From Actinomycetota bacterium (GTDB lineage Bacteria > Actinomycetota > UBA4738 > HRBIN12), in assembly GCA_036374435.1 (NCBI GenBank), contig DASUTU010000030.1:15539-79538 (forward strand): a DNA stretch of 64,000 nucleotides, in the 5' to 3' direction. The position numbers were made by a program, and so were the translations under genes. The notes beneath the pieces are model-generated. The model saw only the letters and a program-made list of their open reading frames with translations. It had not been told where the DNA came from and ran no database searches. How positions within the stretch are numbered: position 1 is the first letter of the stretch; every line of letters starts with the position of its first letter. Of the stretch, positions 26,777 through 60,450 are shown one piece after another.

Positions 26777-26778
26777 CC

Positions 26779-31855: not shown

Positions 31856-31885
31856 GCGGCGAGCCGCCGCCCACCCCCCCGGCGG

Positions 31886-31933: not shown

Positions 31934-31948
31934 GTCGTTTAGCATTGC

Positions 31949-31966
31949 TTGTGAAGGAATTCACAA
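31949..31966. promoter_or_regulatory. Rex operator 2 upstream of ggr-nuoA-N: TTGTGAAggaaTTCACAA (perfect consensus)
   Basis: All 14 half-site positions match. Centre-to-centre spacing to operator 1 is 33 bp. Confidence 0.7.
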
Positions 31967-31968
31967 GC

Positions 31969-36650: not shown

Positions 36651-36654
<4 letters not shown>
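35998..36654 (+). CDS. nuoE: NADH-quinone oxidoreductase subunit E
   Basis: CTNLSCALRGANGV..CLGACEGAP [2Fe-2S] motif. Confidence 0.85.
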
Positions 36655-37999
<1,345 letters not shown>

Positions 38000-38003
<4 letters not shown>

Positions 38004-41547: not shown

Positions 41548-42044
41548 GCGAGCGGGGCCGTCCACCGCGCCCGGACTTCGGCTCGGCGATCGCCGCCGTG
41601 AGCAAGGGGCTGGCGACGGTCTTCAAACAGATCTTCCGGCGCGACGTCACCGAGCAGTACCCCAAGGAGATCGTGCCGCCGCCGCCCCGCAGCCACATCG
41701 GCCGGCACCTGCTGAACCGTCACGAGAACGGGCTCGAGAAGTGTATCGGCTGCGAGCTGTGCGCGTACGCGTGTCCGGCCGACGCGATCTGGGTCGAGGG
41801 AGCCGACAACGACCCGGAGAACCCGACGAGCCCGGGCGAGCGGTACGCGAAGGACTACCAGATCAACTACCTGCGCTGCATCATGTGCGGTCTGTGCGTC
41901 GAGGCGTGCCCGACCCGGGCCCTCACGCTCACGAGCGCGTTCGAGATGAGCTACACGTCCCGGGAGGACGCGATCCTGACCAAGCAGGAGCTCCTGGAGC
42001 CGCCCTTGCCGCTCGGGACGGCGCCGGGGACGAGGGAGGGGTAG
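41544..42044 (+). CDS. nuoI: NADH-quinone oxidoreductase subunit I
   Basis: [12 protein letters not shown] and [12 protein letters not shown]; 166 aa. Confidence 0.9.
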
Positions 42045-42047
42045 CCG

Positions 42048-42644
42048 GTGCCGCTCGACAACCTCGTCTTCTGGGTGTTCGCGCCGATCTGTGTCGGAAG
42101 CGCCCTGGCGATGATCCTGCAGCGCAACGCGGTGCACGCCGCGCTCCTCCTCGTCGTCAACTTCTTCACGATCTCGGTCTTCTACCTGGTCCTCGGCGCC
42201 TCGTTCCTGTTCGCGGTGCAGATCATCGTGTACGCGGGCGCCATCATGGTGCTGTTCCTCTTCGTGATCATGCTCCTGGGCGTGGATCGAGACGAACCGC
42301 TGGTCGAGCGGATCCGGGGACAACGCGCCCTCGGCGTGACGCTCGGGGTCGGGATCTTCCTGGAGCTGTTCTTCGCCGTCCGAGCCGGCATCGGGTTCGC
42401 CACGCGGGCGCCGGCGTCCTTCGACCGGGTCGCCAACGAGGGCGGCAACCCGGTCGCGTTGTCGCGCGTGTTGTTCCGGGATTACTTCTTCCCCTTCGAG
42501 GTCACCTCGGTGCTGCTGATCGTCGCCGCCGTGGCGGTCATGGTGCTGGCGTCCCGGCAGCGCCGGGCGATCACGCGGGCCGAGGTCGAGCGCGCCGCGG
42601 CTCAGAGCCCGGCTCGAGAGACGGCTCCGGATCCGGCGCCGTGA
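42048..42644 (+). CDS. nuoJ: NADH-quinone oxidoreductase subunit J
   Basis: 5 TM helices in typical operon position. Confidence 0.85.
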
Positions 42645-42946
42645 GGACGCCCATCTCCTACTTCCTGATCGTGTCCGGGATGCTCTTCGCCATCGGCACC
42701 GTGGGCGTGTTGGTTCGCAAGAACGCGCTCGTGATCTTCATGGCGGTCGAGCTCCAGCTGAACGCGGTGAACCTGTCGCTGGTCGCGTTCAGCCGTATGC
42801 ACAACAACCTGAACGGGCAGGTCATGGCGTTCTTCTCCATGGTCGTGGCCGCCGCCGAGGTCGTGGTCGGCCTGGCGATCATCGTGACCATCTACCGCCG
42901 TCGCCAGAGCGCCAGCGTGGACGACGCGAACGTGTTGCGAGGGTGA
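42641..42946 (+). CDS. nuoK: NADH-quinone oxidoreductase subunit K
   Basis: 101 aa; [17 protein letters not shown]. Confidence 0.85.
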
Positions 42947-42950
42947 GCGG

Positions 42951-44825
42951 ATGTTCGACCTGGCCTGGCTGATCCCCGCGCTCCCGCTCGCCGGGGCGGT
43001 CCTGAACCTGTTCGCCGGACGCCGCCTGGGGAGCCGGGCCGGCTGGGTGGCCTCCGCGCTCGTCGCGGCCTCGTTCGCCGTGGCCGTCGCCGTCCTGATC
43101 GATCTCGTGGCGCTGCCGGGCGAGGAGCGTCGTCACGCGGTTCGGCTGTTCGAGTGGATCGCGGCCGGAGCGTTCCGGGTCGAGGCGACCATCCTGCTCG
43201 ACCCGCTGTCGATGACGATGACGCTCGTCGTCACCGGCGTGGGGGCGCTGATCCACGTCTACGCGGTCGGCTACCTGGAGAACGACCCGCGCGTGGGCCT
43301 GTTCTTCTCGTACTTCAACCTGTTCGTGTTCTTCATGTTGATGCTCGTCTTGGCGGACAACTACCTCGTGCTCTACCTGGGGTGGGAGGGCGTCGGCCTC
43401 TGTTCGTACCTCCTGATCGGCTTCTGGCACGACCGTCCCGTCGCGGCGAGCGCCGCCAAGAAGGCGTTCGTCACCACCAGGATCGGCGACGCCGCGATGA
43501 TGTTGGGGCTCGTCTTGATCTTCGTGCACCTGGGGACGCTCGACTTCGAGACCGTTCTGGGGCCGGAGGCCGGGGCGCTCTCGAACGGCGCGGCGACGGC
43601 GATCGCCCTCCTGCTGCTGGCCGGCGCCGTCGGCAAGTCCGCGCAGCTCCCGCTCCACGTCTGGTTGCCCGACGCCATGGAGGGCCCCACGCCGGTCTCG
43701 GCCCTGATCCACGCGGCGACGATGGTGACGGCGGGCGTGTACCTCATCGTCCGGTCGCACCCGCTCTTCGAGGCCTCCGACATCGCGCTCACGGTGGTCC
43801 TGGTGGTCGGACTCCTGTCGGCGATCTACGCCGCGCTCGCCTCGATCGGCCAGTTCGACGTCAAGCGCGCCCTGGCCTATTCAACGATGAGCCAGATCGG
43901 CTTCATGTTCTTCGCCGCCGGCATGGGTTTCTACGCCGGGGCGATGCTCCTGCTGGTCGCGCACGCCTTCTACAAGGCCCTGTTGTTCCTGACGAGCGGC
44001 AACGTGATGCACGGCCTGCACGACGAGACCGACCTTCGGGCCATGGGAGGCCTCCGGTCGGAGATGCCCGTCTCGACCGCGTGGTTCGGCATCGGGGCGC
44101 TGGCGCTGGCCGGGGTGCCGCCGCTGGCCGGCTTCTTCGCCAAGGACCACATCGTGAACTTCGCCTCACAGTCGGGGCGGGCGACGGCATGGGTCCTGGC
44201 CTCGATCGCCGCGTTCATCTCGGCGGTGTACATCTCGCGGCCGCTCTTCCTGGTGTTCTTCGGACGCCGGCGGACGGAGGCCCGGGCGCACGAAGCGCCG
44301 TGGCGCATGCACGCACCGCTGGCGGTCCTGGCCGCCGGCGCCGTGACGAGCGGCCTGGTTCTCGGGCTCCAGGCCGAGGGCGGCCTGCTCGAACGGTTCC
44401 TGGAGCCGGTGACGGGCGCGGCCCACGGCACCGGGACCGGTCCCTCCGAGGCCGTGTTGATCGCCGTCTCGATCGTGATCGCCGTGGCGGGGGTGGCCGT
44501 CGCCTGGTGGATCTGGGGATCCGAGCGCGTCGACTGGCAGTCGTTCCCCGAGCGTCAGCCCGAGCTCGCGGGGTGGCTCTCGAACGCCTTCTACCTGAAC
44601 GCGCTGTATTCGTGGCTGGTCCGGGCTCCGGGGCTGGGGTTCGGCCGGGGCCTCCGAGTCGTGGACGACCGCGTCGTGGACGGGGCGGCCAACGAGCTCG
44701 GCGTCGCGGTCACGCGCTCGTCCCGCCTCGCCCCCATCCTGCAGTCCGGGTTGGTCCGCTCGTACGCGCTCGCGTTCCTGCTCGGTGCGGTCGTGCTCCT
44801 GCTCTTCATGGGGTTGCGGTTCTGA
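42951..44825 (+). CDS. nuoL: NADH-quinone oxidoreductase subunit L
   Basis: 624 aa antiporter-like subunit; LPDAMEGPTPVSALIHAATMV. Confidence 0.9.
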   Translation: MFDLAWLIPALPLAGAVLNLFAGRRLGSRAGWVASALVAASFAVAVAVLIDLVALPGEERRHAVRLFEWIAAGAFRVEATILLDPLSMTMTLVVTGVGALIHVYAVGYLENDPRVGLFFSYFNLFVFFMLMLVLADNYLVLYLGWEGVGLCSYLLIGFWHDRPVAASAAKKAFVTTRIGDAAMMLGLVLIFVHLGTLDFETVLGPEAGALSNGAATAIALLLLAGAVGKSAQLPLHVWLPDAMEGPTPVSALIHAATMVTAGVYLIVRSHPLFEASDIALTVVLVVGLLSAIYAALASIGQFDVKRALAYSTMSQIGFMFFAAGMGFYAGAMLLLVAHAFYKALLFLTSGNVMHGLHDETDLRAMGGLRSEMPVSTAWFGIGALALAGVPPLAGFFAKDHIVNFASQSGRATAWVLASIAAFISAVYISRPLFLVFFGRRRTEARAHEAPWRMHAPLAVLAAGAVTSGLVLGLQAEGGLLERFLEPVTGAAHGTGTGPSEAVLIAVSIVIAVAGVAVAWWIWGSERVDWQSFPERQPELAGWLSNAFYLNALYSWLVRAPGLGFGRGLRVVDDRVVDGAANELGVAVTRSSRLAPILQSGLVRSYALAFLLGAVVLLLFMGLRF

Positions 44826-46456
44826 TGCCCTGGCTCACGGTGCTCATCTTCCTGCCGCTGCTCGGGGTCCCGGTGCTCGCGTTGTGGCCGCGGATGTCGG
44901 ACGCCGTCGCCCGGTGGGTGACGCTCGTGGTGATGGTGGCCACGTTCATCGTGGCCCTCGGCGCCCTCGGCGCCTTCGACCCGCAGGTCGCCGGGTATCA
45001 GCTGGTCGAGCGGGTCGAGTGGGTGTCGTCGGCGGGCCTGGCGTACCTGGTGGGCGTCGACGGGTTCAGCATCTGGCTGGTCGTCTTGACCGCGTTCCTG
45101 TTCCCGGTGGGGCTGCTGGCCGCGTGGACCACGACCCATCGCGTCCGGCTGTTCATGGCGCTGTCGCTGCTGCTCGAGACCGTGGTGCTGGGGTCGTTCT
45201 GCGCGCTCGACCTGTTGTTGTTCTTCGTGTTCTTCGAGGCGCTGCTGGTCCCCATGTTCCTGATCATCGGGGTCTGGGGATCGGGCCGGCGTGTGTACGC
45301 GAGCGTCAAGTTCTTCCTCTACACGATGTTCGGCTCCGCGTTCATCCTCGCCGCCACCGTCTACCTCTGGTTCCAGACATCGGCGCAGTTCGGACAGGGG
45401 AGCTTCGACCTTCGCCAGATGGAGCAGCTCTCCTTGGGCGTGACGGCGCAGCGATGGCTGTTCGTCGCGTTCTTCGTCGGGTTCGCGGTGAAGGTGCCGA
45501 TCTTTCCTCTGCACACGTGGCTCCCCGACGCCCACACGGAGGCTCCCACGCACGGATCGATCGTCTTGGCCGCGCTCCTGCTGAAGGCCGGTCCGTACGG
45601 GATCCTCCGGTTCAATCTCGACCTGTTCCCCGAGGCCAGCCGGTATTTCGCGGACGCCATCGCGGTGCTGGCCGTGATCGGCATCGTCTACGGCGCCATC
45701 GTGGCCATGATGCAGACCGACGTGAAACGCCTGGTGGCGTATTCGTCCGTGAGCCACATGGGGTTCGTGATCCTGGGGATCTTCACGTTCACCACCGAGG
45801 GGATGAGCGGCGCGGCGATCCAGATGGTGAACCACGGGTTGGCCACCGGGCTGCTGTTCTTCGCCATCGGGATGTTGTACGAGCGCACGCACACCCGAGA
45901 GATGGACGAGATGAGCGGCCTGGGGCAGGTGACGCCGTGGATCGCGGGGACGTTCCTGGTGGCGAGCCTGTCCTCGATCGGCCTGCCCGGACTGAACAAC
46001 TTCGTCGGCGAGTTCCTGGTGATCCTGGGGGCGTTCGGGGCGGACCGATGGTTCGGCGCCTTCGCCGTCAGTGGGGTGGTGCTCGCCGCGATCTACCTGC
46101 TGTGGGCGTACCAGCGCACGTTCCACGGGCCGGCCCGCGAGGGGCAACGCGGCCTGGCGGACATGGTGCCCCGCGAGTTCGCGGCCGTGGTGCCGGTCGT
46201 CGCCGCGATGATCTTCATCGGCGTGTACCCCAAGGTCGTGCTCGACCGGATCAACCCGACCAGCGACGGCGTCGTCCGGTGGGTCGAGACGGTGGAGGTC
46301 GATCAGCCCGACCTGCCCGGCGGGCTTCGGGCCGACGTCCAACCCGACTACGCGCCGCCGGAGGGCGTCATCGCGGCGGAGCGGGCGGGGGTTCGGGGGG
46401 CTCAAGGAGCGAGCGCGAATGCGCGAGCGTTCGCCCCCCGAGGGGAAGGCCCGTGA
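44825..46456 (+). CDS. nuoM: NADH-quinone oxidoreductase subunit M
   Basis: 543 aa; WLPDAHTEAPTHGSIVLAALLLK. Confidence 0.9.
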   Translation: MPWLTVLIFLPLLGVPVLALWPRMSDAVARWVTLVVMVATFIVALGALGAFDPQVAGYQLVERVEWVSSAGLAYLVGVDGFSIWLVVLTAFLFPVGLLAAWTTTHRVRLFMALSLLLETVVLGSFCALDLLLFFVFFEALLVPMFLIIGVWGSGRRVYASVKFFLYTMFGSAFILAATVYLWFQTSAQFGQGSFDLRQMEQLSLGVTAQRWLFVAFFVGFAVKVPIFPLHTWLPDAHTEAPTHGSIVLAALLLKAGPYGILRFNLDLFPEASRYFADAIAVLAVIGIVYGAIVAMMQTDVKRLVAYSSVSHMGFVILGIFTFTTEGMSGAAIQMVNHGLATGLLFFAIGMLYERTHTREMDEMSGLGQVTPWIAGTFLVASLSSIGLPGLNNFVGEFLVILGAFGADRWFGAFAVSGVVLAAIYLLWAYQRTFHGPAREGQRGLADMVPREFAAVVPVVAAMIFIGVYPKVVLDRINPTSDGVVRWVETVEVDQPDLPGGLRADVQPDYAPPEGVIAAERAGVRGAQGASANARAFAPRGEGP

Positions 46457-47901
46457 TCGGCACCCCCGCCATCGACCTGGGACCCGTCGTCCCCGAGCTC
46501 ATTCTGGTGGGGACGGCCATCCTGGTCTTGCTGGGCGCCGCGCTGGCGCGGCGGGTCGAGCCGCTCGGCTGGTTGTTCGTCTCGCTGGCCGGGGTGGGCG
46601 GCGCCGCGGCGGCCGCGGTGGCGCTCTGGGACCGCGAGGGGGACCTGACGGTCCTGGGCGGAACGGTCGCCGCCGACCGGTTCGGGGTTGCGGTTCGATT
46701 GATCCTGCTGGCCATCGCGGCGATCGGCCTCGTCCTCGGCCACCACTACTTCGAACGTTCGGGCGAGGGCCGGCCGGAGTTCTACCCGCTCGTGCTGTTC
46801 GCGACCTCTGGCATGACGCTCATCGCCGTCGCCACCGACCTGATCCTGGTGTTCCTGGCGCTCGAGGTACTGTCGCTGTCGCTGTACGTGTTGACCGGCC
46901 TCGGATCGCGGCTGGGCTCGATCGAGGGCGCGATGAAGTACTTCTTGCTCGGCGCGTTCTCCTCGGCCTTCTTCCTGTTCGGCGTCGCGATGGCCTACGG
47001 CGCGACGGGATCCACGGGCTTCGCCGACGTGGCGTCCTCGCTGGCGGGCCGGACCGACGGGCTGGCGCTGGCCCTGACCGGGCTGGGGCTGCTCGCCGTG
47101 GGGTTCGCCTTCAAGGTCTCCGCCGTCCCCTTCCACATGTGGACGCCGGACGTGTACCAGGGGGCCCCCACGGCGGTGACGGCGTTCATGTCGGCCGCCA
47201 CGAAGGTGGCCGGGTTCGCGGCGTTGATGCGTCTGTTCAACATCGCGCTCCAGCCACTCGCCTGGGACTGGCGGCCGATCGTGTGGGCCCTGGCGGCCGT
47301 TTCGGTCGTGGCGGGCAGCGTGTTGGCCATTGCCCAGCGCGACGTCAAGCGCCTGCTCGCGTATTCGAGCATCGCCCACGCCGGGTTCGTGCTCACGGGC
47401 TTGACCGCGGCCGGCGAACCCGGCATCAGCGCGGGCCTGTATTACCTGCTCGCGTACTCGCTGACCATTCTCGGGGCGTTCGGCGTGGTCATGCTGGTGT
47501 CCTCGCGGGGCGACCGGCGCACCGAGCTGGAGGCCTACCGAGGCCTGGGCATGCACAGCCCGGTGCTGGCCGGCCTCCTGGCCGTCTTCCTCCTGTCGCT
47601 CACGGGGATCCCGCCGACGGCCGGGTTCGTGGCGAAGGTCGCGGTGTTCAGCGCCGCGATGGAGGCCGGAGGGTGGCCGCTCGTGTTGATCGGCGTCGTC
47701 GCGAGCGTGGTCGCCGCCTATTTCTACCTGCGGGTCATCGTGTTGATGTTCATGCACGAGCCGGAGGGCGAACCCGAGACCGACCGAGGCTGGGTGCCGA
47801 GGTTCGTCGTGGGGCTGCCGGCGGCCCTCGTGCTGATCCTGGGCGTGTTCCCGGGGCTCGTGGTCGGCTTCCTGGAGACCGCGGCGGTGTTGCGCTGGTG
47901 A
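46453..47901 (+). CDS. nuoN: NADH-quinone oxidoreductase subunit N
   Basis: 482 aa; MWTPDVYQGAPTAVTAFM. Confidence 0.9.
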   Translation: MIGTPAIDLGPVVPELILVGTAILVLLGAALARRVEPLGWLFVSLAGVGGAAAAAVALWDREGDLTVLGGTVAADRFGVAVRLILLAIAAIGLVLGHHYFERSGEGRPEFYPLVLFATSGMTLIAVATDLILVFLALEVLSLSLYVLTGLGSRLGSIEGAMKYFLLGAFSSAFFLFGVAMAYGATGSTGFADVASSLAGRTDGLALALTGLGLLAVGFAFKVSAVPFHMWTPDVYQGAPTAVTAFMSAATKVAGFAALMRLFNIALQPLAWDWRPIVWALAAVSVVAGSVLAIAQRDVKRLLAYSSIAHAGFVLTGLTAAGEPGISAGLYYLLAYSLTILGAFGVVMLVSSRGDRRTELEAYRGLGMHSPVLAGLLAVFLLSLTGIPPTAGFVAKVAVFSAAMEAGGWPLVLIGVVASVVAAYFYLRVIVLMFMHEPEGEPETDRGWVPRFVVGLPAALVLILGVFPGLVVGFLETAAVLRW

Positions 47902-47935: not shown

Positions 47936-48958
47936 GTGAGCCGGCGCGTCATCCCAGGCCTCGAAGCGCCCGACCCGGGGCTCGAGCGCGACATCCGGGC
48001 CCGCCTGGACCAGGTCGAGGAGGCTCTGGAGAAGGCCGTGCGGGCGGACTCGAACCTGCTCGGCGAGACCGCCCAGTACCTGCTCTCCGCGGGCGGGAAG
48101 CGGTTCCGCCCGATCCTCACGTTGTTGTCGGGGTACTTCGGCGACCCGGCCGATCCGCGGTTGATCCCCGGGTCGGTCGCCATCGAGCTCGTGCATCAGG
48201 CCACCCTGTACCACGACGACGTGATCGACGAGGCCGACGCGCGGCACGGCGTCCCCGCCGCCAACGTCCGGTGGAGCAACACCGTCGCCATCCTGACGGG
48301 GGACTACCTGTTCGCGAAGGCGTCGGAGATCTCGACCGACCTCGGGACCGACATCTGCGCCCTGCTGGCTCGGACCATCGCCGTCCTGTGCGACGGGCAG
48401 ATCCGGGAGGTGGAGGCCGCCGGCCGCGTCGAGCAGACGGTGGACGCCTACATGGAGATCATCCGCCGCAAGACCGGGGCGCTGATCGCGACGTCGTGCC
48501 GGCTCGGCGGGATGCTCTCGGACGCCCCCGCGGAGTCCGTCGACGTGCTGGAGCAGTTCGGCGAGGCGCTGGGGCTCGCCTTCCAGCTCTCCGACGACAT
48601 CATGGACTTCACCTCTACCAAGCAGGAGCTGCAGAAGCAGCCCGGTCAGGACCTCAAGGAAGGCGTGTACACGTTCCCGGTGCTGCACGCCCTCGTCGAC
48701 GGCGAACGCGCCGAGGAGCTGGGGGCGATCCTTCGATCGGGACCGCCGGAGGGGCCCGAGCTGGAGCGGGCGCTGGCCATCATCCACTCGTCCGAGAGCC
48801 TGTCGGTGGCGCGAGCCGCCGTGGTCGCGGAGGTCGACCTGGCCCACGGCCTCGCGTCCCGACTGCCGGTTGGCCCCGCCCGAGCGGCGTTGGAGCAGCT
48901 CGCGGAGTTCCTCGCTACGCGGTGCGGCGCCAGGCAGGGGGGTGCGGCGGACTCATGA
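47936..48958 (+). CDS. Long-chain (hepta/octaprenyl-type) polyprenyl diphosphate synthase, probably for the menaquinone side chain
   Basis: LYHDDVIDEAD and QLSDDIMD; 340 aa. Confidence 0.8.
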   Translation: MSRRVIPGLEAPDPGLERDIRARLDQVEEALEKAVRADSNLLGETAQYLLSAGGKRFRPILTLLSGYFGDPADPRLIPGSVAIELVHQATLYHDDVIDEADARHGVPAANVRWSNTVAILTGDYLFAKASEISTDLGTDICALLARTIAVLCDGQIREVEAAGRVEQTVDAYMEIIRRKTGALIATSCRLGGMLSDAPAESVDVLEQFGEALGLAFQLSDDIMDFTSTKQELQKQPGQDLKEGVYTFPVLHALVDGERAEELGAILRSGPPEGPELERALAIIHSSESLSVARAAVVAEVDLAHGLASRLPVGPARAALEQLAEFLATRCGARQGGAADS

Positions 48959-49030: not shown

Positions 49031-49048
49031 TCGCGAAAACCTTCACAA
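49031..49048. promoter_or_regulatory. Rex operator upstream of nuoA2: TCGCGAAaaccTTCACAA
   Basis: 12 of 14 half-site positions match; it ends 16 nt before the nuoA2 GTG. Confidence 0.55.
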
Positions 49049-49064: not shown

Positions 49065-49430
49065 GTGAGCACCTATTACGAGTCCTACGGAGTCGTTCTC
49101 GCGGTCCTGGTCGTCGGTGGTGGTTTGGTCGCGGTCGCCTTCGGAGCCGCACGACTGATCGCGCCCAGGCGCCCCCTGCCGGAGAAGCTGCTGACCTACG
49201 AATGCGGGATCGACCCGGTGGGGCAGGGGTGGTCCCAGAGCCAGGTGCGCTACTACATCTACGGGTTCCTGTTCGTGATCTTCGACATCGAGGCCGTCTT
49301 CCTGTTCCCCTGGGCCAGGATCTTCGAGGACCTCGGCTACCAGGCCGTGGCCGAGATGGCCATCTTCATCGGCATCCTGGGGGCGGGCCTGCTCTACGCC
49401 TGGCGGAAGGGGGTCCTGCGATGGGCCTGA
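49065..49430 (+). CDS. nuoA: NADH-quinone oxidoreductase subunit A, second copy
   Basis: [23 protein letters not shown]; 121 aa. Confidence 0.85.
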
Positions 49431-49933
49431 TCACCGAACGCACCGGGCTCGCGCAGATCCAGCCCATCAAGTTCATCCTCAACTGGGGACGCAAGTATTC
49501 GCTGTGGGTGTTCAACTTCGGGCTGGCCTGCTGCTCGATCGAGTTCATCGCCGCCTCGACCTCCAAACACGACTTCATCCGGTTCGGCGTGATTCCGTTC
49601 GCGCACGGCCCGCGCCAGGCCGACCTCCTCGTGATCGCCGGGACGCCGACCGACAAGATGGCCCCGGTCATCAAGCGGCTCTACGACCAGATGGCGGACC
49701 CCAAGTACGTCATCTCGATGGGGTCGTGCGCCAACTGCGGGGGTCCGTACTGGGACTCGTATTCGGTGTTGAAGGGGATCGACCAGGTCCTGCCGGTGGA
49801 CGTCTACGTGCCCGGGTGCCCGCCGAGGCCCGAGGCGCTCCTGGAGGGCATCGTCCGGCTCCAGCAGAAGATCGAGAAGGAAGACATCAGGGAGAAGTGG
49901 AGTGGCAGGCTCACGGCCGCTACCCCCTCCTGA
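49421..49933 (+). CDS. nuoB: NADH-quinone oxidoreductase subunit B, second copy
   Basis: [29 protein letters not shown]. Confidence 0.85.
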
Positions 49934-50423
49934 GGTCGAGACGCGCGTCCGCGCGCAGTTCGGGGACGACGTCCTTGCGGTCGAGGACCAGGTCGGACAC
50001 GCCGTCGTGACCGTCTCCCTGGCGCGGTACCACGAGCTGGTGCAGTTCCTCCGTGACGAGCCGGACTTCGCCTGCGACTACTGCGACTTCACCTCCGGCG
50101 TCGATCGCGGCGACGAGGGCATCGAGATCGTCACGCACGTCTTCTCCACCACGCTTCACCACAACGTCCGGGTTAAGGTCCGGCTGCCCGCGGACGACCC
50201 GGTCTGCCCCACGATCTCGGACCTGTATCCGACCGCGGACTGGCACGAGCGGGAGACGATGGAGATGTTCGGGGTCACGTTCGAGGGCCACCCCACCCCC
50301 GTTCGGCTGCTCCTGCCCGAGCCGTTCGAGGGCCACCCGCTCCGCAAGGACTTCGAGCTGATGTCGCGGGTCGTCAAACCCTGGCCGGGGGCCGCCGAGG
50401 GCGAAGAGGAGGAGGAAGAGTGA
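49902..50423 (+). CDS. nuoC: NADH-quinone oxidoreductase subunit C, second copy (30-kDa domain only, no NuoD fusion)
   Basis: [25 protein letters not shown]; 173 aa with a C-terminal EGEEEEEE tail. GTG start. Confidence 0.8.
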
Positions 50424-51427
50424 TCGCCCAGTCCGGGGTGAGCTTCGTCGACCAATGGTTCGACGTCTACTGGCTCGTTCTGGTGGTGAAGGCCGCCATC
50501 GTCCTCGGCTTCTTCCTCGTGGCCCCGCTCGGCATCGGATACATGGAGCACAAGGTCCTCGCCCACATGCAGGGGCGTCTCGGCCCGATGTACGCGGGAC
50601 GATTCCACGGGTGGGCCCAGCTCGTGGCCGACGGGATCAAGTTCGTCCAGAAAGAGGACGTGATCCCCGCCGCGGCCGATCGCTGGGCGTACTCGCTGGC
50701 TCCGGCGGTGGCGCTCGTGCCGTACCTCGCGGTGTTCGTGGTGATCCCGTTCTCCGCCGAGATCTACATCCTCGATCTCGACGTGGGGATCTTCTTCGTC
50801 CTGGCCATCTCGTCCGTCGGGGTGATCGGGACGCTGATGGCGGGGTGGGCCTCGGCGAACAAGTTCTCGTTGATCGGAGCCTTGCGGGGCGCCGCTCAGC
50901 TGATCGCCTATGAGCTCCCGTTGGTGCTGGCCGCCGCCTCGGTCGTCATGCAGGCCGGCACGTTGTCGATGATCGGCATCGTCGAGGCCCAGGCCCGGTA
51001 CTGGTTCGTGCTGACGCAGCCCATCGGTTTCTTCATCTTCATGGTGGCCGCGCTGGCCGAGCTGACGAGGCCGCCGTTCGACATGCCGGTCGCGGACTCG
51101 GAGATCATCTTCGGCCACATGACCGAATACACCGGGTTGAAGTTCGCGTTCTTCCTGCTGGCCGAGTACGGGGGCATCGTGGCGCTCTCGGCGGTGGCGT
51201 CCGTGTTGTATCTCGGCGGGTACCAGGCGCCGCCGTTCCTCGGGGCCATCCCGGCACCGCTGTGGATGGCGGCGAAGATCGGCGCGTTGTCGTTCGTGAT
51301 CATCTGGCTGCGGGCCACCTATCCGCGGCTTCGCGAGGACCAGCTCCAGCGCGGGTCGTGGCTGGCGCTGATCCCGCTGGGCCTGCTCCAGGTGCTCGTC
51401 GTCGGCGCGGTCAAGGTGGCGGTCTAG
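50420..51427 (+). CDS. nuoH: NADH-quinone oxidoreductase subunit H, second copy
   Basis: MEHKVLAHMQGRLGP..ELTRPPFDMPVADSEIIFGHMTEYTG. Confidence 0.85.
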   Translation: MIAQSGVSFVDQWFDVYWLVLVVKAAIVLGFFLVAPLGIGYMEHKVLAHMQGRLGPMYAGRFHGWAQLVADGIKFVQKEDVIPAAADRWAYSLAPAVALVPYLAVFVVIPFSAEIYILDLDVGIFFVLAISSVGVIGTLMAGWASANKFSLIGALRGAAQLIAYELPLVLAAASVVMQAGTLSMIGIVEAQARYWFVLTQPIGFFIFMVAALAELTRPPFDMPVADSEIIFGHMTEYTGLKFAFFLLAEYGGIVALSAVASVLYLGGYQAPPFLGAIPAPLWMAAKIGALSFVIIWLRATYPRLREDQLQRGSWLALIPLGLLQVLVVGAVKVAV

Positions 51428-52300
51428 ATGGCGATCGAGGAGCGCGAGACGCTGGTCTCCCCGGACGTGGAGGGGATGGGCCTCGGCCTGATCAAGGGGC
51501 TCGGGGTCACGCTGAAACACGCCCTTCGGCGCTCGGTCACCCAGCAGTATCCCGAGGTCAAGCCGGACCTCCCCGCGCGCACCCGAGGCGTCATCGCGCT
51601 CAAGGAGGCGAACTGCACCGTCTGTTACAAGTGCGCGCGCGAATGCCCCGACTGGTGCATCTACATCGACGCGCACAAGGAGACGCACGACCCGGCTTCC
51701 GGTGGCAAGGCGCGGTCGGTGAAGGTGCTGGATCGGTTCGCCATCGACTACGCGCTCTGCATGTACTGCGGGATCTGCGTCGAGGTGTGCCCTTTCGACG
51801 CCTTGTTCTGGAGCCCGGAGTTCGAGTACTCGGAGTACGAGATCGACCTGCTCACGCACGAGAAGGAGAAGCTCGAGGAGTGGACCTACACGGTCCTGCC
51901 CCCGCCCGAGCTCGAGGTCGGCGCCGAGCCGTCGATTGAGGACAAGGGGGGTGGCGCTGGGGCAGGGGCTCCGGGCTCCGGTTCGGCGGCTGGATCGCCG
52001 CCTCCGGTCGCTCCGGCGCCCGTAGCCGCCTCACAGTCGCCCTCCGTCCCCACCCCAACGCCTGCCGAGGCCGCCCCCGCCGCTGCGACCGCGCCCGCCG
52101 CCGAAGCCGCCCCCCAGACCGCGGAGGTCACTCCCTCGCCAACGGAAGCCGGGGAGCGGGTCGAGGTGGAGCCGGATCCGGAGACGTTCGAGCGCGTCCT
52201 GGCGGAACAGCTGGCGCAGGGGAAGGATCGGCGCGTCGCCGAAGGACAAGCGCGCCGGGCGGCGATGCTCGAGGCCCGACGCAGGGCGGGCGGCGGATGA
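51428..52300 (+). CDS. nuoI: NADH-quinone oxidoreductase subunit I, second copy, with a C-terminal Ala/Pro-rich extension of about 120 aa carrying a conserved motif
   Basis: [12 protein letters not shown] and [12 protein letters not shown], then a [34 protein letters not shown] linker and the terminal [31 protein letters not shown]. Confidence 0.85.
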
Positions 52301-52797
52301 CGGGTCAGGAGTACGCGTTCCTCGTGTTGTCCGTCGTTGGCGTCGGCGCGGCCATTCGCGTCGTGACGGCGCGAAACGTCGTGCACGCCGCGCTGTACCT
52401 GGTCGTCACGCTCTCGATGGTGGCGGGCGCGTACCTGATCCTCTCGGCCGAGTTCGTGGCGTGGGTGCAGGTCCTCATCTACGTCGGGGCCGTGGTGATC
52501 CTGTTCCTGTTCGGCCTCATGTTGACGAAGGCGCCGATCGGGCGCGAGGCCCTCGACAACCAGCGGCGGGGTGTGGCCTTCCTCGTTGGGCTGGCCATCC
52601 TGGCCGGGCTGGTCTTCCTGATCCAGGACGCGTTCGGGTGGGACGAGTCGCGGATCGACCCCTCCGGAGGAGGCGCCGCCGAGGTCGGGTCGGCGATCTT
52701 CTCTCGGTTCGTCCTTCCGTTCGAGGTCGTGTCCTTCCTGCTGCTGGCGGCGCTGATCGGGGCCATCGTGCTCTCCCGGAGGGACGACTCGACGTGA
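52297..52797 (+). CDS. nuoJ: NADH-quinone oxidoreductase subunit J, second copy
   Basis: 166 aa, 5 TM. ATGA overlap with the upstream gene. Confidence 0.8.
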
Positions 52798-53096
52798 TCC
52801 GCCTGGCGCTCCCCCTGCTGTTCTCGGCCGCGCTGTTCGCCACCGGGGTGTACGGCGTCCTGGCCCGGCGCAACGGGGTCCTGGTGCTGATGTCGATCGA
52901 GCTGATGCTCAACGCCGTGAACGTGAACCTGATCGCGTTCGGCCAGTGGCTTGGCGACCTGACGGGGCAGGTCTTCGGGCTGTTCGTGATCGCGGTTGCC
53001 GCCGCCGAGGTGGGCATCGGCCTCGCCATCGTGATCCTCATCTACCGCAACCGGGAGACGATCAACGTGGACGAGGTGAACCTCCTCAAGTGGTAG
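52794..53096 (+). CDS. nuoK: NADH-quinone oxidoreductase subunit K, second copy
   Basis: 100 aa; [17 protein letters not shown]. Confidence 0.85.
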
Positions 53097-53101
53097 CCGC
53101 C

Positions 53102-55075
<1,974 letters not shown>

Positions 55076-55149
55076 GAGGGGGTGCGGGGACTGACGGAGC
55101 GAGCCCGTGAGCGAGCGGTCGTCCCCCACGCGGAAGGGTGGGAGAGCAG

Positions 55150-56685
55150 ATGACCTGGGAGAACTCGGCGATCACGATCGCCACGTTCCTGCCGCTGGTG
55201 GGGGCGCTGGTGATCGCGCTCGTGCCTCGCGAGAGCGACCGGGCGGTTCGAGCCCTGGGGATCGTCGTCACCGGAGCGGCGCTGGTGGTCGCGTTGGCGC
55301 TGGCCGTCTCGTTCGACTACGGAGCGGCCGGGCTCCAGTTCGAGCTCGACACACGATGGATCCCCGCGATCGACGCCCGGTACCACGTCGGGATCGACGG
55401 GATCTCGCTGCCGCTGTACCTGCTCACGTTCGCCCTGTCGTTCCTGTGCGCCGTCTACTCGTGGCGAGTCGTCCCGAGCCCCGGCAAGACCAAGGGGTTC
55501 ATCGCGCTGATGCTGCTCCTGGAAACCGGCATGGCCGGAACGTTCATCGCGTTCGATCTGATCCTGTTCTTCATCTTCTGGGAGCTGGTGCTGGTCCCGA
55601 TGTACTTCCTCATCGGCATCTGGGGCAGCGCGAATCGCGAATACGCCGCGATCAAGTTCTTCCTCTACACCTTGTTCGGTTCGATCTTCATGCTGCTGGG
55701 GTTCCTGGCGATGTATTTCCGGTCCGACCTCGGCGGCGGCCAGCACACGTTCGACATCCTCGCCCTCCAGGAGTTCGCGGCCGGCGGGGGGTTTCCACAG
55801 GGGTTCCAGCTCGTCGCGTTCGCCGCCGTGGGACTCGGGTTCGCCGTGAAGGTGCCGATGTGGCCGTTCCACACGTGGCTGCCCGACGCCCATACCGAGG
55901 CGCCCACGATCGGCTCGGTCCTGCTGGCCGGGGTCATGCTGAAGATGGGCACCTACGGGTTCGTTCGGATCGCGCTCCCCGTCCTGCCGTACGGGGCCGA
56001 GAAATACGCCCCCTGGATCGGAGCGCTCGCCGCGATCGCCATCGTCTATGCGGCGCTGGCCTGCCTGGCGCAGAAGGACCTGAAACGGCTGATCGCCTTC
56101 AGCTCGGTGGGGCACATGGGGTTCGTCATGCTCGGCATCGCCACGCTCACGCCTATCGGGATCAACGCGGCGATCTTCGGGATGGTGGCTCACGGGATCA
56201 TCACCGGCATGTTGTTCTTCTGCGTGGGATCGCTCTACGACCGATACCACACGCGGGAGATCGCCGAGATCGGCGGCGGGGTCATGCAGAAGCTGCCGTA
56301 CCTGGGGGGCGTGTTCGCGTTCGTCTCGATCGCCTCGCTGGGGCTCCCCGGCCTGGCCGGCTTCTGGGGCGAGGTCATGGCCCTCCTCTCGGCCTACAAC
56401 CCCGTCGCCGGCCTCAACGCGGGCCTGTTCCGGGTGTTCATGGTGGCCGGCGGGATCGGCACGATCCTGACCGCCGGCTACTTCCTGTGGATGCTCCAGC
56501 GCGTGAACATGGGCGCGTTGCCGGAGAAGTGGCGGGCGTCCCCGTTCCCGGACATCGTGGCCGTCGAGTGGGTGTCGTGGGCGCCGCTGCTCGCGGCCAC
56601 GGTCGCCCTCGGCGTGTTCCCCCGGCTCGTCTTCGGCGTGACCGAGGAGCCGGTCGAGGCCATCCTGCGCCTGTTCGGCGGCTGA
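55150..56685 (+). CDS. nuoM: NADH-quinone oxidoreductase subunit M, second copy
   Basis: WLPDAHTEAPTIGSVLLAGVMLK. Start at MTWENSAIT after GGGTGGGAGAGCAG. Confidence 0.85.
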   Translation: MTWENSAITIATFLPLVGALVIALVPRESDRAVRALGIVVTGAALVVALALAVSFDYGAAGLQFELDTRWIPAIDARYHVGIDGISLPLYLLTFALSFLCAVYSWRVVPSPGKTKGFIALMLLLETGMAGTFIAFDLILFFIFWELVLVPMYFLIGIWGSANREYAAIKFFLYTLFGSIFMLLGFLAMYFRSDLGGGQHTFDILALQEFAAGGGFPQGFQLVAFAAVGLGFAVKVPMWPFHTWLPDAHTEAPTIGSVLLAGVMLKMGTYGFVRIALPVLPYGAEKYAPWIGALAAIAIVYAALACLAQKDLKRLIAFSSVGHMGFVMLGIATLTPIGINAAIFGMVAHGIITGMLFFCVGSLYDRYHTREIAEIGGGVMQKLPYLGGVFAFVSIASLGLPGLAGFWGEVMALLSAYNPVAGLNAGLFRVFMVAGGIGTILTAGYFLWMLQRVNMGALPEKWRASPFPDIVAVEWVSWAPLLAATVALGVFPRLVFGVTEEPVEAILRLFGG

Positions 56686-56710
56686 TCGAGGTGCGGGAGG
56701 CGACCCGGCG

Positions 56711-58177
56711 ATGAACCCGGCGATCGACTACCACGCGATCCTGCCCGAGATGATCCTGGCCGGCACGATCCTGCTCGTCTTGGTGGTCGACGCCTTCCTG
56801 TCGCAGCGGCGCAAGTGGTTCACGATGCCGCTGGGGTTCGCCGGCGTGGCGGCGGCCCTGGTGGCCGTGTTGACGCTCATCGGCCAGGAGCGGACGACCT
56901 TCGACGGCATGTTCGTGGTCGACGACTTCGCCGTGTTGTTCAAGACGTTCTTCCTGTCGGTCGCGCTCGTCGTGCTGATGCTCTCCCTGCGGTACTTCCG
57001 TGACGGCAGCTTCTACCAAGGGGAGTACTACTTCCTGCTGCTGACCTCGTTCCTGGGCACCCTCCTGATGCCGAGCTCGCGGGACCTGCTGATGTTGTTC
57101 ATCGCGCTCGAGCTCGTGAGCGCTCCCGGCTTCCTCATGGCGGCGTTCCGGAAGACCGACCCGAGGTCCAACGAGGCCGGGATGAAGTTCTTCCTGATCG
57201 GGGTGCTCTCGGCCGCGGTCATGCTCTACGGGATGAGCCTGGTCTACGGCGTGACCGGGACGCTCAACCTGAGCGAGATCGGGCAGGCCCTGTCGGGCGC
57301 GCTGGCCCAGGGACAGGAGGCGCTCGTCCTGGCGGCGATCCTGTTCATCGTGGCGGGATTCGCTTTCAAGGTGAGCGCGGTGCCGTTCCAGTTCTGGGCT
57401 CCGGACACGTACGAGGGGGCCCCGGTCCCGGTGGCGGCGTTCCTGGCCACGGCGTCGAAGGCGGCGGGCTTCGCCGGCCTGCTCCAGCTCATGTTCGTTG
57501 CCTTCCCCCACCAGCACGAGTTCTGGGCGCCCATCTTCGCCGCCCTGTCGATCGCCACGATGTCGATCGGCAACCTGGTCGCCCTCCAGCAGCGCCAGGT
57601 GGTGCGGCTGCTGGCGTACTCGAGCATCGCCCAGGCCGGCTACATGTTGCTGCCGTTCGCGCTGGTGTCGGCGGACCAGGCGGTGAACCAGGACGCCTTC
57701 GCCGCCTCGGTCACCTACATCTTGATCTACGCCATCATGACGCTCGGCGCCTTCGCCGTCGTGATCGCGCTGTCGCGGGAGTCGCGGGGGCTCCTGATCT
57801 CCGACTTCGCCGGGCTGAGTCGCCGGGCGCCGGTGCTGGCCGTGGCCATGACGGTGTTCATGGTCTCGTTGGCGGGCGTCCCGCCCACGGGCGGGTTCTG
57901 GGCCAAGTTCCTCGTGTTCAAGGCGGCGATCGAGGCCGGGGGCATCGGGACGGTTCTGGCCGTCGTGATGCTCGTGAACTCGGTGATCAGCCTCGTGTAC
58001 TACCTGGCGGTGCCGCGGCAGATGTTGTTCGAGGAGCCCGAGCTGGACCGGCGGCTGGTCTCGCCGTCGTTGGTCACGGCGGTCACCGTCGTGGCCATGG
58101 TGGCCATCGCCGCCGTGGGGGTCTGGCCGGAGCTCCTCGCCCACTTCCCGCCGCTGTCCACCCTGGCCGGTCCGTAG
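56711..58177 (+). CDS. nuoN: NADH-quinone oxidoreductase subunit N, second copy
   Basis: FWAPDTYEGAPVPVAAFL; 488 aa. Confidence 0.85.
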   Translation: MNPAIDYHAILPEMILAGTILLVLVVDAFLSQRRKWFTMPLGFAGVAAALVAVLTLIGQERTTFDGMFVVDDFAVLFKTFFLSVALVVLMLSLRYFRDGSFYQGEYYFLLLTSFLGTLLMPSSRDLLMLFIALELVSAPGFLMAAFRKTDPRSNEAGMKFFLIGVLSAAVMLYGMSLVYGVTGTLNLSEIGQALSGALAQGQEALVLAAILFIVAGFAFKVSAVPFQFWAPDTYEGAPVPVAAFLATASKAAGFAGLLQLMFVAFPHQHEFWAPIFAALSIATMSIGNLVALQQRQVVRLLAYSSIAQAGYMLLPFALVSADQAVNQDAFAASVTYILIYAIMTLGAFAVVIALSRESRGLLISDFAGLSRRAPVLAVAMTVFMVSLAGVPPTGGFWAKFLVFKAAIEAGGIGTVLAVVMLVNSVISLVYYLAVPRQMLFEEPELDRRLVSPSLVTAVTVVAMVAIAAVGVWPELLAHFPPLSTLAGP

Positions 58178-58229: not shown

Positions 58230-59096
58230 ATGATCGGTCTCAACCGCGTCAAGACCTGGATCCTGATCGCCGCCCTGGGCGGCCTGTTCGTGCTGATCGG
58301 CGGCGCCATCGGCGGGCAGAACGGCATGGTGATCGCCCTCGGGATCGCCCTGGTCTTCAACTTCTCGATGTACTGGTTCAGCGACAAGATCGCCATCGCC
58401 ACCACCCGCTCGAAACCGGTGACGGAGCAGGAGGCGCCCGACCTGTACCGGATCGTTCGGGAGCTGGCGACCACCAATCAGATGCCGATGCCCCGCATCT
58501 ACGTCTCGGACATGCAGCAGCCCAACGCGTTCGCCACGGGACGCAACCCGAACCATGCGGCGGTTTCGGTGACGCGGGGGATCCTGCAGGTCCTCGACGA
58601 GCGGGAGCTGCGGGGCGTGCTCGCCCACGAGCTGTCCCACGTGGCGAACCGCGACATCCTCGTCAGCTCGATCGCCGCGGCGATCGGCATGAGCATCACG
58701 TTCCTGGCCCGGTTCGCCCTGTGGTTCGGCGGGGGCGACAACCGCAACAACCCGCTGGGGGCCTTCGGCCTGATCTTCGCCTGGATCCTCGCCCCGCTCG
58801 CGGCGGCGGTGATCCAGATGGCCGTGAGCCGCTCACGCGAATACCAGGCGGACGAGTCGGGCGCCCTCCTGTCGCGCGACCCGGACGCGCTGGCCAGTGC
58901 GCTGCGGAAGCTGGAGGCCACGGCCAAACAGGTGCCGGTGCCCGCCAATATCAGCCCGGCGGAGGCCCACCTGTTCATCGTGAACCCGCTTCGCGGACGG
59001 CAGGCCGCGATGAACCTGGCGAACCTGTTCTCGACGCACCCGCCGACCGAGGCCCGGGTGGCCCGACTGGCCGAGATCAAGAAGCAGATCGGCTGA
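58230..59096 (+). CDS. htpX: Zinc metalloprotease HtpX (M48)
   Basis: HELSHV zinc motif and EYQADE; 4 TM helices. Confidence 0.9.
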   Translation: MIGLNRVKTWILIAALGGLFVLIGGAIGGQNGMVIALGIALVFNFSMYWFSDKIAIATTRSKPVTEQEAPDLYRIVRELATTNQMPMPRIYVSDMQQPNAFATGRNPNHAAVSVTRGILQVLDERELRGVLAHELSHVANRDILVSSIAAAIGMSITFLARFALWFGGGDNRNNPLGAFGLIFAWILAPLAAAVIQMAVSRSREYQADESGALLSRDPDALASALRKLEATAKQVPVPANISPAEAHLFIVNPLRGRQAAMNLANLFSTHPPTEARVARLAEIKKQIG

Positions 59097-59099: not shown

Positions 59100-60450
59100 C
59101 GGGTATGTCAAGCCATCAAGCGGCCAGACGGGTCGCCCCCTCGTGGCGCGCGGGGTCGTAGGGCACCCCGTCGGTCCAACACCTCCAGATCACCCGGACC
59201 CAGGCCCGCGCGAGGATCCTGACGGCGTGAGGATGTCGACAGCCCCTGGATCGGGCGCGGTCGTAGATGTCGCGCGCCCACGGGCTCGCCTGCACGCTGT
59301 CCTGAGCGAAGTCGATGAGCGCCGCCCGCAGCTGTTTGTCGCAACCTCGACGGAAGCTCACCGCTCTACGCTTGCCCGAGGCCCGCGTCGACGGCGCTAC
59401 CCCGGCCGCGGCCGCGAGCGAGGACTCGTCCGGGTACCTGCCTCGGCAGTCTCCGATCTCGGCCAGCAGCAGCGCCGCCCGGTTCACGCCCGCACGCGGC
59501 AATGACCGGAAGATCTCACCGTCCGGGTGGAGTCCAAGCGCCTCGGCGATCCGGCGGTCGAGCGCTTCGATCCGATCGCGGATCTGTCCGGCCAGGCCGA
59601 CGAGCTCGGTCGTGACGACCCCGAAGGCCTCCCCCGCCTCACCCAGGAGGCCCTCGGCTGCCGCGTCCAGGTGCGCCATCAGCTCGGCGGAGGTCCTGCG
59701 GCCGGCGTAGCCGACCGAGCGCAGCCAGGACGCCAGCCGACGCTCCGACAGCCACCGGGCCCGTTCGGCGGTCGGGAATCGGCGAAGGAACGTGAGCGAG
59801 ATCGGACTGTCGAGCTGTGCGAACAGACCGATCGCCCCCGGGAAGGCCTGCTGCAGGTTCGCCAGCAGCTGGTTGTGCACGGCGATCCGGTGTCCCACCA
59901 GGTCCTTGCGCGCCCGCACCAGAGCCCGGAGCGCCCGCGTCGCCGCCGTGTCTGGATCAAGCGATGCCATCCGATGTCCGTCGGTCCGAAGGGCATCCGC
60001 CAACACCAGCGCGTCGAAGCGGTCGTCCTTGTTGCCGGCGGTCCCGTGACGCAGGCGGTAGGCCCGCACCTGGCGGGGGGAGATCACCACGACCTGCAGG
60101 CCGGCGGCGAGCAGCGCGTCGACCACGGGTCCGTCTGGCCGTTCGATCGCCACCCGCTCGACGCCGTGGCTCCGAAACCTCGAACTCAGCTGCTCGAGCC
60201 CGCGGCGGCCGTGCTGGACGTCGAACCGGTCCACGACCTCACCGACGTCGTCCAGGACGCAGACCGCGTGCCGTTCCCAGGACCAGTCCACGCCACCGTG
60301 ACGTGGACCACCAGATGCCCTAGCGTCCATCCCGCTCCTCCCGTCACCTCGGGGGAAGCGCCCGGTCCGGTTCGGGGTCTGCTCGCCGGTCGCTCACTGA
60401 TCGGCGCTCGAGGCGCATAGCCCTATGGCCAGTCGGCGGACCCCGGGCCG
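59100..60450 (-). mobile_element. IS110-family insertion sequence (approximate extent; ends not defined)
   Basis: A single transposase ORF without obvious terminal inverted repeats, as is usual for IS110. It is flanked by htpX and an unrelated cluster. Confidence 0.5.
59116..60330 (-). CDS. IS110-family (DEDD) transposase
   Basis: N-terminal WSWERHAVCVLDD..V (DEDD_Tnp_IS110) and C-terminal transposase_20 region (ALLLAEIGD..FRS..LAAAAGVAPSTRASGK). Confidence 0.85.
   Translation of the reverse strand: MDARASGGPRHGGVDWSWERHAVCVLDDVGEVVDRFDVQHGRRGLEQLSSRFRSHGVERVAIERPDGPVVDALLAAGLQVVVISPRQVRAYRLRHGTAGNKDDRFDALVLADALRTDGHRMASLDPDTAATRALRALVRARKDLVGHRIAVHNQLLANLQQAFPGAIGLFAQLDSPISLTFLRRFPTAERARWLSERRLASWLRSVGYAGRRTSAELMAHLDAAAEGLLGEAGEAFGVVTTELVGLAGQIRDRIEALDRRIAEALGLHPDGEIFRSLPRAGVNRAALLLAEIGDCRGRYPDESSLAAAAGVAPSTRASGKRRAVSFRRGCDKQLRAALIDFAQDSVQASPWARDIYDRARSRGCRHPHAVRILARAWVRVIWRCWTDGVPYDPARHEGATRLAA

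Follow-up and report, generated by a model that had tools for sequence, protein, structure and literature searches.

nuoABCHIJKLMN in Actinomycetota: a second complex I-like operon and its missing NuoD subunit

How could a complex I-like enzyme function when its operon encodes neither the NADH-oxidizing N-module nor the 49-kDa subunit NuoD? This question is raised by a 64-kb stretch of about 70% GC DNA from an Actinomycetota bacterium (contig DASUTU010000030.1), hereafter the window, in which a complete nuoA-N operon (nuo1) is followed by a second operon (nuo2) of only ten genes. In every solved structure, NuoD is the subunit on which NuoB, NuoC and NuoI assemble, and NuoC is an obligate partner of NuoD. 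All three subunits are conserved in nuo2, so a 49-kDa subunit must be supplied from somewhere. Its source is probably a dedicated, stand-alone NuoD (NuoD2), and the reading favored here, held with somewhat better than even confidence, is that nuo2 encodes an N-module-less, complex I-like pump that receives NuoD2 in trans.

Genes were identified with Pfam and NCBIfam scans, and start codons were placed afterwards. Ten consecutive genes on the forward strand (49065-58177) encode NuoA, B, C, H, I, J, K, L, M and N (Table 1). From nuoA2 to nuoL2, successive genes overlap by 10, 32, 4, 0, 4, 4 and 7 nucleotides (nt), so that seven junctions out of nine overlap or abut; nuoM2 and nuoN2 are each preceded by a gap, of 62 and 25 nt respectively. 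The stop codon of nuoC2 and the start codon of nuoH2 share the sequence GTGA, a 4-nt overlap, and the window holds no degenerate nuoD remnant between these two genes. The scans find no nuoD, nuoE, nuoF or nuoG within nuo2. In the window, E, F and G occur only in the first operon, and a tblastn search of all 64 kb with NuoD1 detects no further sequence resembling NuoD. The initial annotation had described a tightly coupled second operon downstream of the complete one, devoid of N-module and NuoD, with a stand-alone 30-kDa NuoC2 directly followed by nuoH2; all of this is borne out, coordinates included. The operon thus supplies ten of the 11 subunits of an N-module-less enzyme, namely the membrane arm (A2, H2, J2, K2, L2, M2 and N2) and three members of the Q-module (B2, C2 and I2).

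The redox subunits retain their hallmarks. NuoB2 aligns over its full length with the Escherichia coli and mouse NuoB/PSST proteins, keeps the four N2 cysteines of the CC...C...CPP pattern, and is approximately 55-60% identical to canonical NuoB/PSST, as estimated from alignments. Both CxxCxxCxxxCP motifs, with eight cluster cysteines, can be read from the translation of NuoI2. Homologues of NuoC2 form more than 120 clusters of 172-177 amino acids (aa) with invariant WHERE...FEGHP...LRKDF motifs, and the protein ends in an unusual, conserved acidic tail. In the membrane arm, alignment to solved NuoM chains indicates that NuoM2 retains the Glu of transmembrane helix (TM) 5, the Lys residues of TM7 and TM8, and the Glu of TM12. 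Pumping residues were checked one by one in NuoM2 only, NuoL2 and NuoN2 being judged by their passing the NCBIfam family cut-offs.

The arrangement is not peculiar to a single assembly. The layout nuo1, polyprenyl synthase gene, A2 through N2, htpX recurs in 13 independent assemblies (L001-L013), comprising two long metagenome contigs (L001 and L002) and eleven contigs of metagenome-assembled genomes (MAGs; L003-L013), labeled Actinomycetota and in one case Solirubrobacterales. Their NuoC2 proteins are 55-84% identical to that of the window, the C2/H2 junction is identical throughout, and no nuoD lies within the flanks of these loci (up to 10 kb). A local deletion or assembly error that removed a segment between nuoC2 and nuoH2, a concern voiced in the initial annotation, is excluded because 13 independent assemblies have the same layout. 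All ten genes are under purifying selection, with ratios of non-synonymous to synonymous substitution rates (dN/dS) of 0.13-0.26 relative to L001, and of 0.14 for nuoC2.

Among known systems, the window operon resembles the 11-subunit complex I, NuoABCDHIJKLMN, which includes cyanobacterial and chloroplast NDH-1 (surveyed in PMC3144371). Both lack NuoE, F and G, the donor is presumably not NADH, and NuoD2 is short like NdhH. Sister operons of the window's nuo2 (L045, L033, L080 and L083-L085) have exactly this 11-gene form. The window operon differs in that it holds only ten of the 11 genes, with nuoD outside, in that no ferredoxin-docking subunit of the NdhS/V/O type is seen for it, and in that the organism also possesses a full 14-subunit enzyme.

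Other complex I relatives fit poorly. F420H2:methanophenazine oxidoreductase (Fpo) of methanogens shares a complex I-like core without NuoEFG. However, neither FpoF nor FpoO is encoded in the operon or its flanks, and the FpoC, H, I, K and L models score well below their cut-offs (252 against 475 for FpoH, whereas NuoH2 exceeds its NuoH cut-off). The F420-dependent enzyme suggested initially is consequently unsupported. Group 4 [NiFe] hydrogenases and their relatives (Mbh, Mbx/MBS, Ech and FHL) show distant homology to B, C, H, I and L/M/N. They were rejected as well: there is no [NiFe] large subunit, the A/J/K/L/M/N membrane arm is complete, and complex I chains head the structural-sequence matches (for NuoB2, an E-value of 3e-54 against 5e-30 for Mbh). 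An Mrp antiporter is incompatible with the presence of NuoB, C, H and I homologues; MrpE/F/G are absent and Mrp models fall far below their cut-offs. Across NCBIfam, the Ndh, Fpo, Mrp and hydrogenase models all score far below their cut-offs for nuo2; the Nuo models, in contrast, reach or exceed theirs.

The window's two nuo operons are old paralogues by sequence, their products being 33-50% identical. NuoH2 is 61-65% identical to NuoH2 of other genera but 44% identical to its own NuoH1, and NuoB2 and NuoI2 likewise resemble their nuo2 counterparts in other genera more than their nuo1 counterparts in the window. A concatenated H+L+M+N tree places all nuo2 copies in one clade apart from nuo1, with actinobacterial nuo2 monophyletic in 100 of 100 bootstraps. 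The initial annotation had proposed a comparison with the Fpo, Mbh and Ech clades; affiliation with these, assessed by model scores and matches, is not supported. A scan of one genome per species with the NuoC2 alignment recovered the A2-B2-C2-H2...N2-htpX cluster in Streptomyces, Micromonospora, Microbispora, Planomonospora, Streptosporangium, Spirillospora, Glycomyces and others. By these sequence relationships the window operon is orthologous to the actinobacterial nuo2 cluster of the Streptomyces SCO4599-4608 type.

In Streptomyces, nuo2 has been described as a cluster without D, E, F and G whose nuoD2 is located apart from it (PMC3765725, PMC8388888), and its function has been called unclear (PMC9239103). 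The copies of S. coelicolor (SCO4599-SCO4608) and S. ambofaciens (nuoA2...N2) have the same order, A2-B2-(C2)-H2...N2 followed by htpX, and are located, like that of the window, next to the canonical nuoA-N region or downstream of it. A D-less nuo2 is therefore widespread in Actinomycetota and already known from Streptomyces, and the arrangement is less unusual than it had been taken to be. Several features set the window apart. It belongs to another branch, of Solirubrobacterales-like MAGs, that lost nuoD from the operon independently; its nuo2 directly follows nuo1, with the polyprenyl synthase gene alone in between; its NuoC2 is short with an acidic tail, in contrast to the long Pro/Ala-rich tail in Streptomyces; its NuoI2 has a motif in common with the bc complex (see below); and a Rex-like site precedes its nuoA2, unlike Streptomyces-type loci.

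A NuoC homologue lies between B2 and H2 in every nuo2 locus, although Streptomyces nuo2 descriptions list no C2 gene. The Streptomyces homologue (L031 9485-11203, and other loci) has a low-complexity, Pro/Ala-rich tail of approximately 250 aa that reaches the H2 start. The apparent C2-H2 gap in Streptomyces is thus the C-terminal tail of C2 and not a nuoD remnant. Micromonospora-type loci (L016, L020, L022-L024, L034-L037, L043 and L051) show spacers of about 1.5-5 kb, mostly about 3 kb, between B2 and C2 and of about 2-3 kb between H2 and I2. No A2 is detected in them, and none of the inserts matches NuoD.

Relatives that have kept the gene indicate where nuoD came from. A nuoD encoding 380-400 aa lies between C2 and H2 in L014, L033, L045, L063, L080 and L083-L085, which are MAGs of Actinomycetota, Acidimicrobiia, Nitriliruptorales and Egibacteraceae, and these D-containing relatives often share the upstream synteny of nuo1 and polyprenyl synthase. 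Because the deeper relatives hold nuoD at this position, the ancestor of nuo2 had all 11 genes and was an ordinary operon of the N-module-less type. Of 100 bootstraps, 99 unite the window's lineage with L045, which contains nuoD, and none unites it exclusively with the D-less Streptomyces-type clade; nuoD hence left the operon at least twice.

The relocated gene can be located in a complete genome. The 11.85-Mb chromosome of Nonomuraea gerenzanensis (NZ_LT559118.1) carries, at about 1.21 Mb, a nuo2 without nuoD (L087) and, about 740 kb away, a stand-alone gene for a 384-aa NuoD2 (L086, 471058-472179). This protein is 57% identical to the operon-encoded NuoD2 of L045 but 38% identical to the window's NuoD1. 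Its immediate neighbors encode DoxX-like and acyltransferase proteins, and folK, folB, folP, ftsH, hpt and tilS are found at a distance of about 2-8 kb. The sequence thereby confirms the published separate location of nuoD2. The record is listed as 'plasmid I', although it is evidently the chromosome, and contains ten annotated features, none of them in the regions examined.

Stand-alone copies also occur in metagenomes, which were scanned for a high-GC version of the NuoD2-specific motif GYMHRGxEKL. The 120 loci sorted in this way comprise 58 of the operon type, about 39 stand-alone genes resembling that of Nonomuraea (type 1) and about ten of a second stand-alone kind (type 2). Type 2 (L098, L116, L117, L118, L156 and fragments) comes from soil metagenomes, has 70-72% GC, is about 62% identical to L045-type and 56% identical to type 1 NuoD2, and sits between a PF02636 methyltransferase gene and selA-selB. 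Types 1 and 2 fall together with the L045-type in one clade (91 of 100 bootstraps), within which types 1 and 2 are each monophyletic (100/100) and the L045-type is so in 83 of 100. There are two D-less lineages in the operon tree and two stand-alone lineages in the NuoD2 tree. Type 1 is accounted for by the Streptomyces/Nonomuraea clade, which leaves type 2, by elimination, as the fit for the window's lineage. Composition agrees: the tetranucleotide signatures of L098, L116 and L118 each correlate best with the window (0.76-0.82) among 29 references. Tree congruence, elimination and composition together are suggestive of type 2 NuoD2 as the partner of the window's lineage. Protein-database searches with the operon-encoded NuoD2 of L033 and L045 returned only close relatives of at least 69% identity, and the three contexts checked were all operon-encoded.

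NuoD2 is a recognizable form of the 49-kDa subunit. Whether operon-borne or stand-alone (L014, L033, L045, L063, L080, L083-L086 and the metagenome loci), it carries the motif R-x-D-W-L-S, in which Trp aligns with Tyr87 of Thermus Nqo4, a ligand of the quinone head group; His38 is kept. In contrast, Tyr is retained in NuoD1 and in two outgroup operons of the 11-subunit type (L054, Nitrospirota, and L060, Bacteroidota). NuoD2 also lacks a segment of about 25 aa found in NuoD1 and in the Thermus and mitochondrial subunits. The cyanobacterial NdhH chain is similarly short (394 aa). Finally, the HTG of NuoD1 and Thermus is replaced by HRG in NuoD2. By reference to the bovine sequence, this arginine presumably occupies the position of Arg85 in NDUFS2, the mitochondrial homologue of NuoD, a residue that is dimethylated by NDUFAF7. 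Of the loci with flanks on both sides, 11 of 16 of type 1 and three of four of type 2 have a gene for a PF02636 (MidA/NDUFAF7-family) methyltransferase no more than 5 kb from the stand-alone nuoD2 (for example L086 2652-3647, and also L098, L116, L118 and many of L088-L207). In L080 it directly follows nuoN2 (10757-11842). It is possible that this linkage is a bacterial counterpart of the mitochondrial assembly step.

The exchange of Tyr87 for Trp has been noted in NuoD of piericidin-producing Streptomyces and read as self-resistance (Degli Esposti 2015, PMC4758237). Judged by its distribution among the sequences above, it appears to characterize the NuoD2 paralogue throughout its lineage rather than to be a piericidin adaptation. 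In the literature returned, neither this generality nor the repeated relocation of nuoD nor the methyltransferase linkage was found discussed, and D-less operons are not discussed in Spero 2015 or in Moparthi and Hagerhall 2011; such novelty as the locus retains lies in these points.

Taken together, the option favored among those originally listed is a NuoD paralogue encoded elsewhere, as described for Streptomyces, located on the Nonomuraea chromosome and matched by the type 2 lineage, and the genome studied here would itself carry a stand-alone nuoD2. Several points weigh against this view. No nuoD2 is seen for this genome within the 64 kb available, exact look-ups of NuoC2 and NuoN2 matched no record in the collection searched, no shared contig links type 2 NuoD2 to the window's lineage, and support for the order of branches inside the NuoD2 tree is poor (27, 53 and 10 of 100 bootstraps). 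Since nuoD left the operon independently here, what holds in Streptomyces and Nonomuraea transfers only by analogy. No candidate electron-input or docking subunit is encoded next to the operon. Moreover, the chemistry of the acceptor is uncertain and possibly non-canonical, since mutants with Trp at position 87 are reported to be crippled in canonical quinone reduction and to show severely reduced decylubiquinone activity (cited in PMC4758237).

The independent loss also means that a stand-alone copy is not guaranteed, which lends some weight to the strongest alternative, in which Nuo2 borrows NuoD1, and possibly also the E1/F1/G1 NADH module, to give a complex I isoform with another membrane arm. 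NuoD1 is the only NuoD encoded in the window, 15 kb upstream on the same strand, Rex-like sites occur at both operons, and a hybrid nuo/nuo2 machinery has been proposed for Streptomyces (PMC9239103). Yet the divergence of the two sets of subunits indicates that their interfaces parted long ago, and NuoD1 is the long form, with the additional segment and the HTG sequence typical of N-module enzymes, whereas every nuo2-associated NuoD is short with HRG and Trp. A dedicated stand-alone NuoD2 exists in the complete genome checked (Nonomuraea), and the second stand-alone lineage matches the window's in composition. Borrowing is less likely because NuoD1 is a long N-module form and a short dedicated NuoD2 occurs across the family; it is a doubtful reading, to be kept in mind rather than adopted.

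A module that truly operates without NuoD, for instance as an Mrp-like ion translocator or with NuoC2 and NuoB2 alone as a reduced redox head, is improbable. It would account for the absence of nuoD from operon and window, for the intact antiporter-like L2/M2/N2 and for the unusual acidic tail of NuoC2. Against it, NuoB2 keeps all N2 ligands and its resemblance to canonical NuoB/PSST, which sit on NuoD; NuoC2 keeps its canonical motifs under purifying selection; NuoI2 keeps its eight cluster cysteines; the MrpE/F/G genes are absent; and sister lineages with nearly identical subunits include NuoD. The idea that nuo2 is a decaying remnant of a duplicated operon, or an artefact of assembly that removed nuoD, draws on nothing other than the IS110-family transposase just downstream and is already refuted by the ten intact, translationally coupled reading frames, the low dN/dS values, the C2/H2 junction common to 13 assemblies and the abundance that a proteomic comparison reported for SCO4599-4608, the orthologues in S. 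coelicolor (PMC9739823).

A more far-reaching version of the favored reading draws on the C-terminus of NuoI2. In addition to its 2x[4Fe-4S] domain, this protein has an extension of about 140 aa that ends in a conserved, basic motif of 41 aa. The same motif, with the consensus D(P/Q)ETF(E/D)RVLA..LA.G.DRRVAEG.AR.AA, forms the N-terminus of the PetD-like subunit IV of a split cytochrome b6-type bc complex encoded elsewhere in the window (61% identity, E-value 8e-12). It is kept at the NuoI2 C-terminus in L001-L013, is duplicated in L004 and is weaker in L014 and L033. As the sequences stand, it may represent a shared docking helix on the cytoplasmic side. The bc operon also encodes a 2x[4Fe-4S] ferredoxin, as the initial annotation had pointed out. 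Nuo2 and NuoD2 might then constitute a distinct enzyme class, with a quinone pocket that has Trp in place of the universal Tyr, a NuoD2 matured by the co-inherited NDUFAF7-like arginine methyltransferase, and a NuoI2 tail that may link Nuo2 and the bc complex to a common partner such as the bc-operon ferredoxin. The repeated escape of nuoD would in that case reflect a need of NuoD2 for separate maturation or dosage. This proposal is speculative and, as a whole, unlikely.

If NuoD2 is indeed supplied in trans, Nuo2 would be a second proton pump of the 11-subunit type, with nuoD relocated outside the operon. Its fourth Q-module subunit would be a short, NdhH-like NuoD2 of about 385-400 aa with Trp in place of Tyr and the HRG arginine, encoded elsewhere in the genome and typically near the gene for an NDUFAF7/MidA-like methyltransferase. 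By analogy with enzymes lacking the N-module, direct donation by NADH may reasonably be doubted. NuoI2/NuoB2 would be the entry point for electrons, with reduced ferredoxin as the best guess for the donor by analogy with cyanobacterial NDH-1, and the electrons would pass via N2 to menaquinone, with proton translocation through L2/M2/N2.

Expression of Nuo2 probably responds to the NADH/NAD+ ratio through a Rex-operator-like palindrome, TCGCGAAAACCTTCACAA, that lies 17 nt upstream of the nuoA2 start. Matches to TTGTGAA-N4-TTCACAA with at most three mismatches number five in the window against 0.18 expected. An equivalent site precedes A2 in L001, L002, L004-L012, L014, L033 and L045, and is thus kept in the window's lineage and its D-containing sisters. 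The palindrome is a probable regulatory site of nuo2 itself, with a promoter separate from that of nuo1, and the distribution of the five sites suggests a single redox-sensing regulon across the whole respiratory gene island. Rfam scans of the window detected no RNA element, and scans for sigma-70 promoters and terminators were uninformative in DNA of this GC content.

Table 1. Features of the 64-kb window that bear on nuo2, in order of position
Feature	Position	Strand	Details
41-aa motif, N-terminus of PetD-like subunit IV	19942-20064	-	shared with NuoI2
Rex-like site	21775-21792		divergent region between bc operon and ccdA
CtaA-CtaB fusion	28559-30445	-	part of respiratory island
Rex-like sites	31916-31933, 31949-31966		ahead of the block from geranylgeranyl-reductase to nuo1
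nuoA1-N1 operon	33291-47901	+	complete, including D1, E, F and G
nuoD1	34697-35998	+	433 aa; sole nuoD in the window
Rex-like site	42154-42171		inside nuoJ1; weakest match
Polyprenyl diphosphate synthase	47936-48958	+	PF00348; between the two nuo operons; same position in L001-L012, L045, L083 and L085
Rex-operator-like palindrome	49031-49048	+	upstream of nuoA2; consensus match and conservation
nuoA2	49065-49430	+	121 aa; PF00507, E-value 4.8e-35; 43% identity to NuoA1
nuoB2	49421-49933	+	170 aa; carrier of Fe-S cluster N2; PF01058; NCBIfam NuoB subfamily 226 bits (cut-off 116)
nuoC2	49902-50423	+	173 aa; stand-alone 30-kDa subunit; PF00329 only, without 49-kDa (NuoD) domain
nuoH2	50420-51427	+	335 aa; PF00146, E-value 1.9e-101; NCBIfam NuoH equivalog NF004741 323.5 bits (cut-off 305)
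nuoI2	51428-52300	+	290 aa; 2x[4Fe-4S] domain, Ala/Pro-rich linker, conserved basic C-terminal motif; Fer4 families and NuoI models
41-aa motif, C-terminus of NuoI2	52175-52297	+	shared with PetD-like subunit IV
nuoJ2	52297-52797	+	166 aa; PF00499
nuoK2	52794-53096	+	100 aa; PF00420; length equal to L001 copy
nuoL2	53090-55075	+	about 661 aa; PF00662 and PF00361; NCBIfam NuoL equivalog 605.6 bits (cut-off 556)
nuoM2	55138-56685	+	515 aa; TIGR01972 559 bits
nuoN2	56711-58177	+	488 aa; TIGR01770 399 bits (cut-off 332.6)
htpX (HtpX-type M48 peptidase)	58230-59096	+	PF01435; directly after nuoN2
IS110-family transposase	59116-60330	-	PF01548 and PF02371; directly after htpX

The surroundings of nuo2 are largely respiratory. 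The island at 17701-33237 encodes a cytochrome c, a Rieske protein, the split cytochrome b6/PetD-like pair, the 2x[4Fe-4S] ferredoxin and CcdA, together with subunits II (a cytochrome c fusion), I (with a subunit IV-like tail) and III of a caa3-type oxidase, CtaG and a geranylgeranyl-reductase-like flavoprotein. On the other side of nuo2, htpX follows nuoN2 in most nuo2 loci, including those of Streptomyces, Micromonospora and Nonomuraea. The IS110-family transposase behind it is a local insertion beside the operon, since a gene for a HAD-family hydrolase holds that place in L001 and L002.

Nuo2 is thus a second complex I-like enzyme carried by many soil Actinomycetota, among them antibiotic-producing genera. 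Its missing NuoD would be a relocated, dedicated paralogue that moved out of the operon more than once and bears a non-canonical residue at the quinone ligand position. Predictions follow from this for the composition of the enzyme (NuoD2 or NuoD1), for its maturation, which may involve arginine methylation, and for its substrate.

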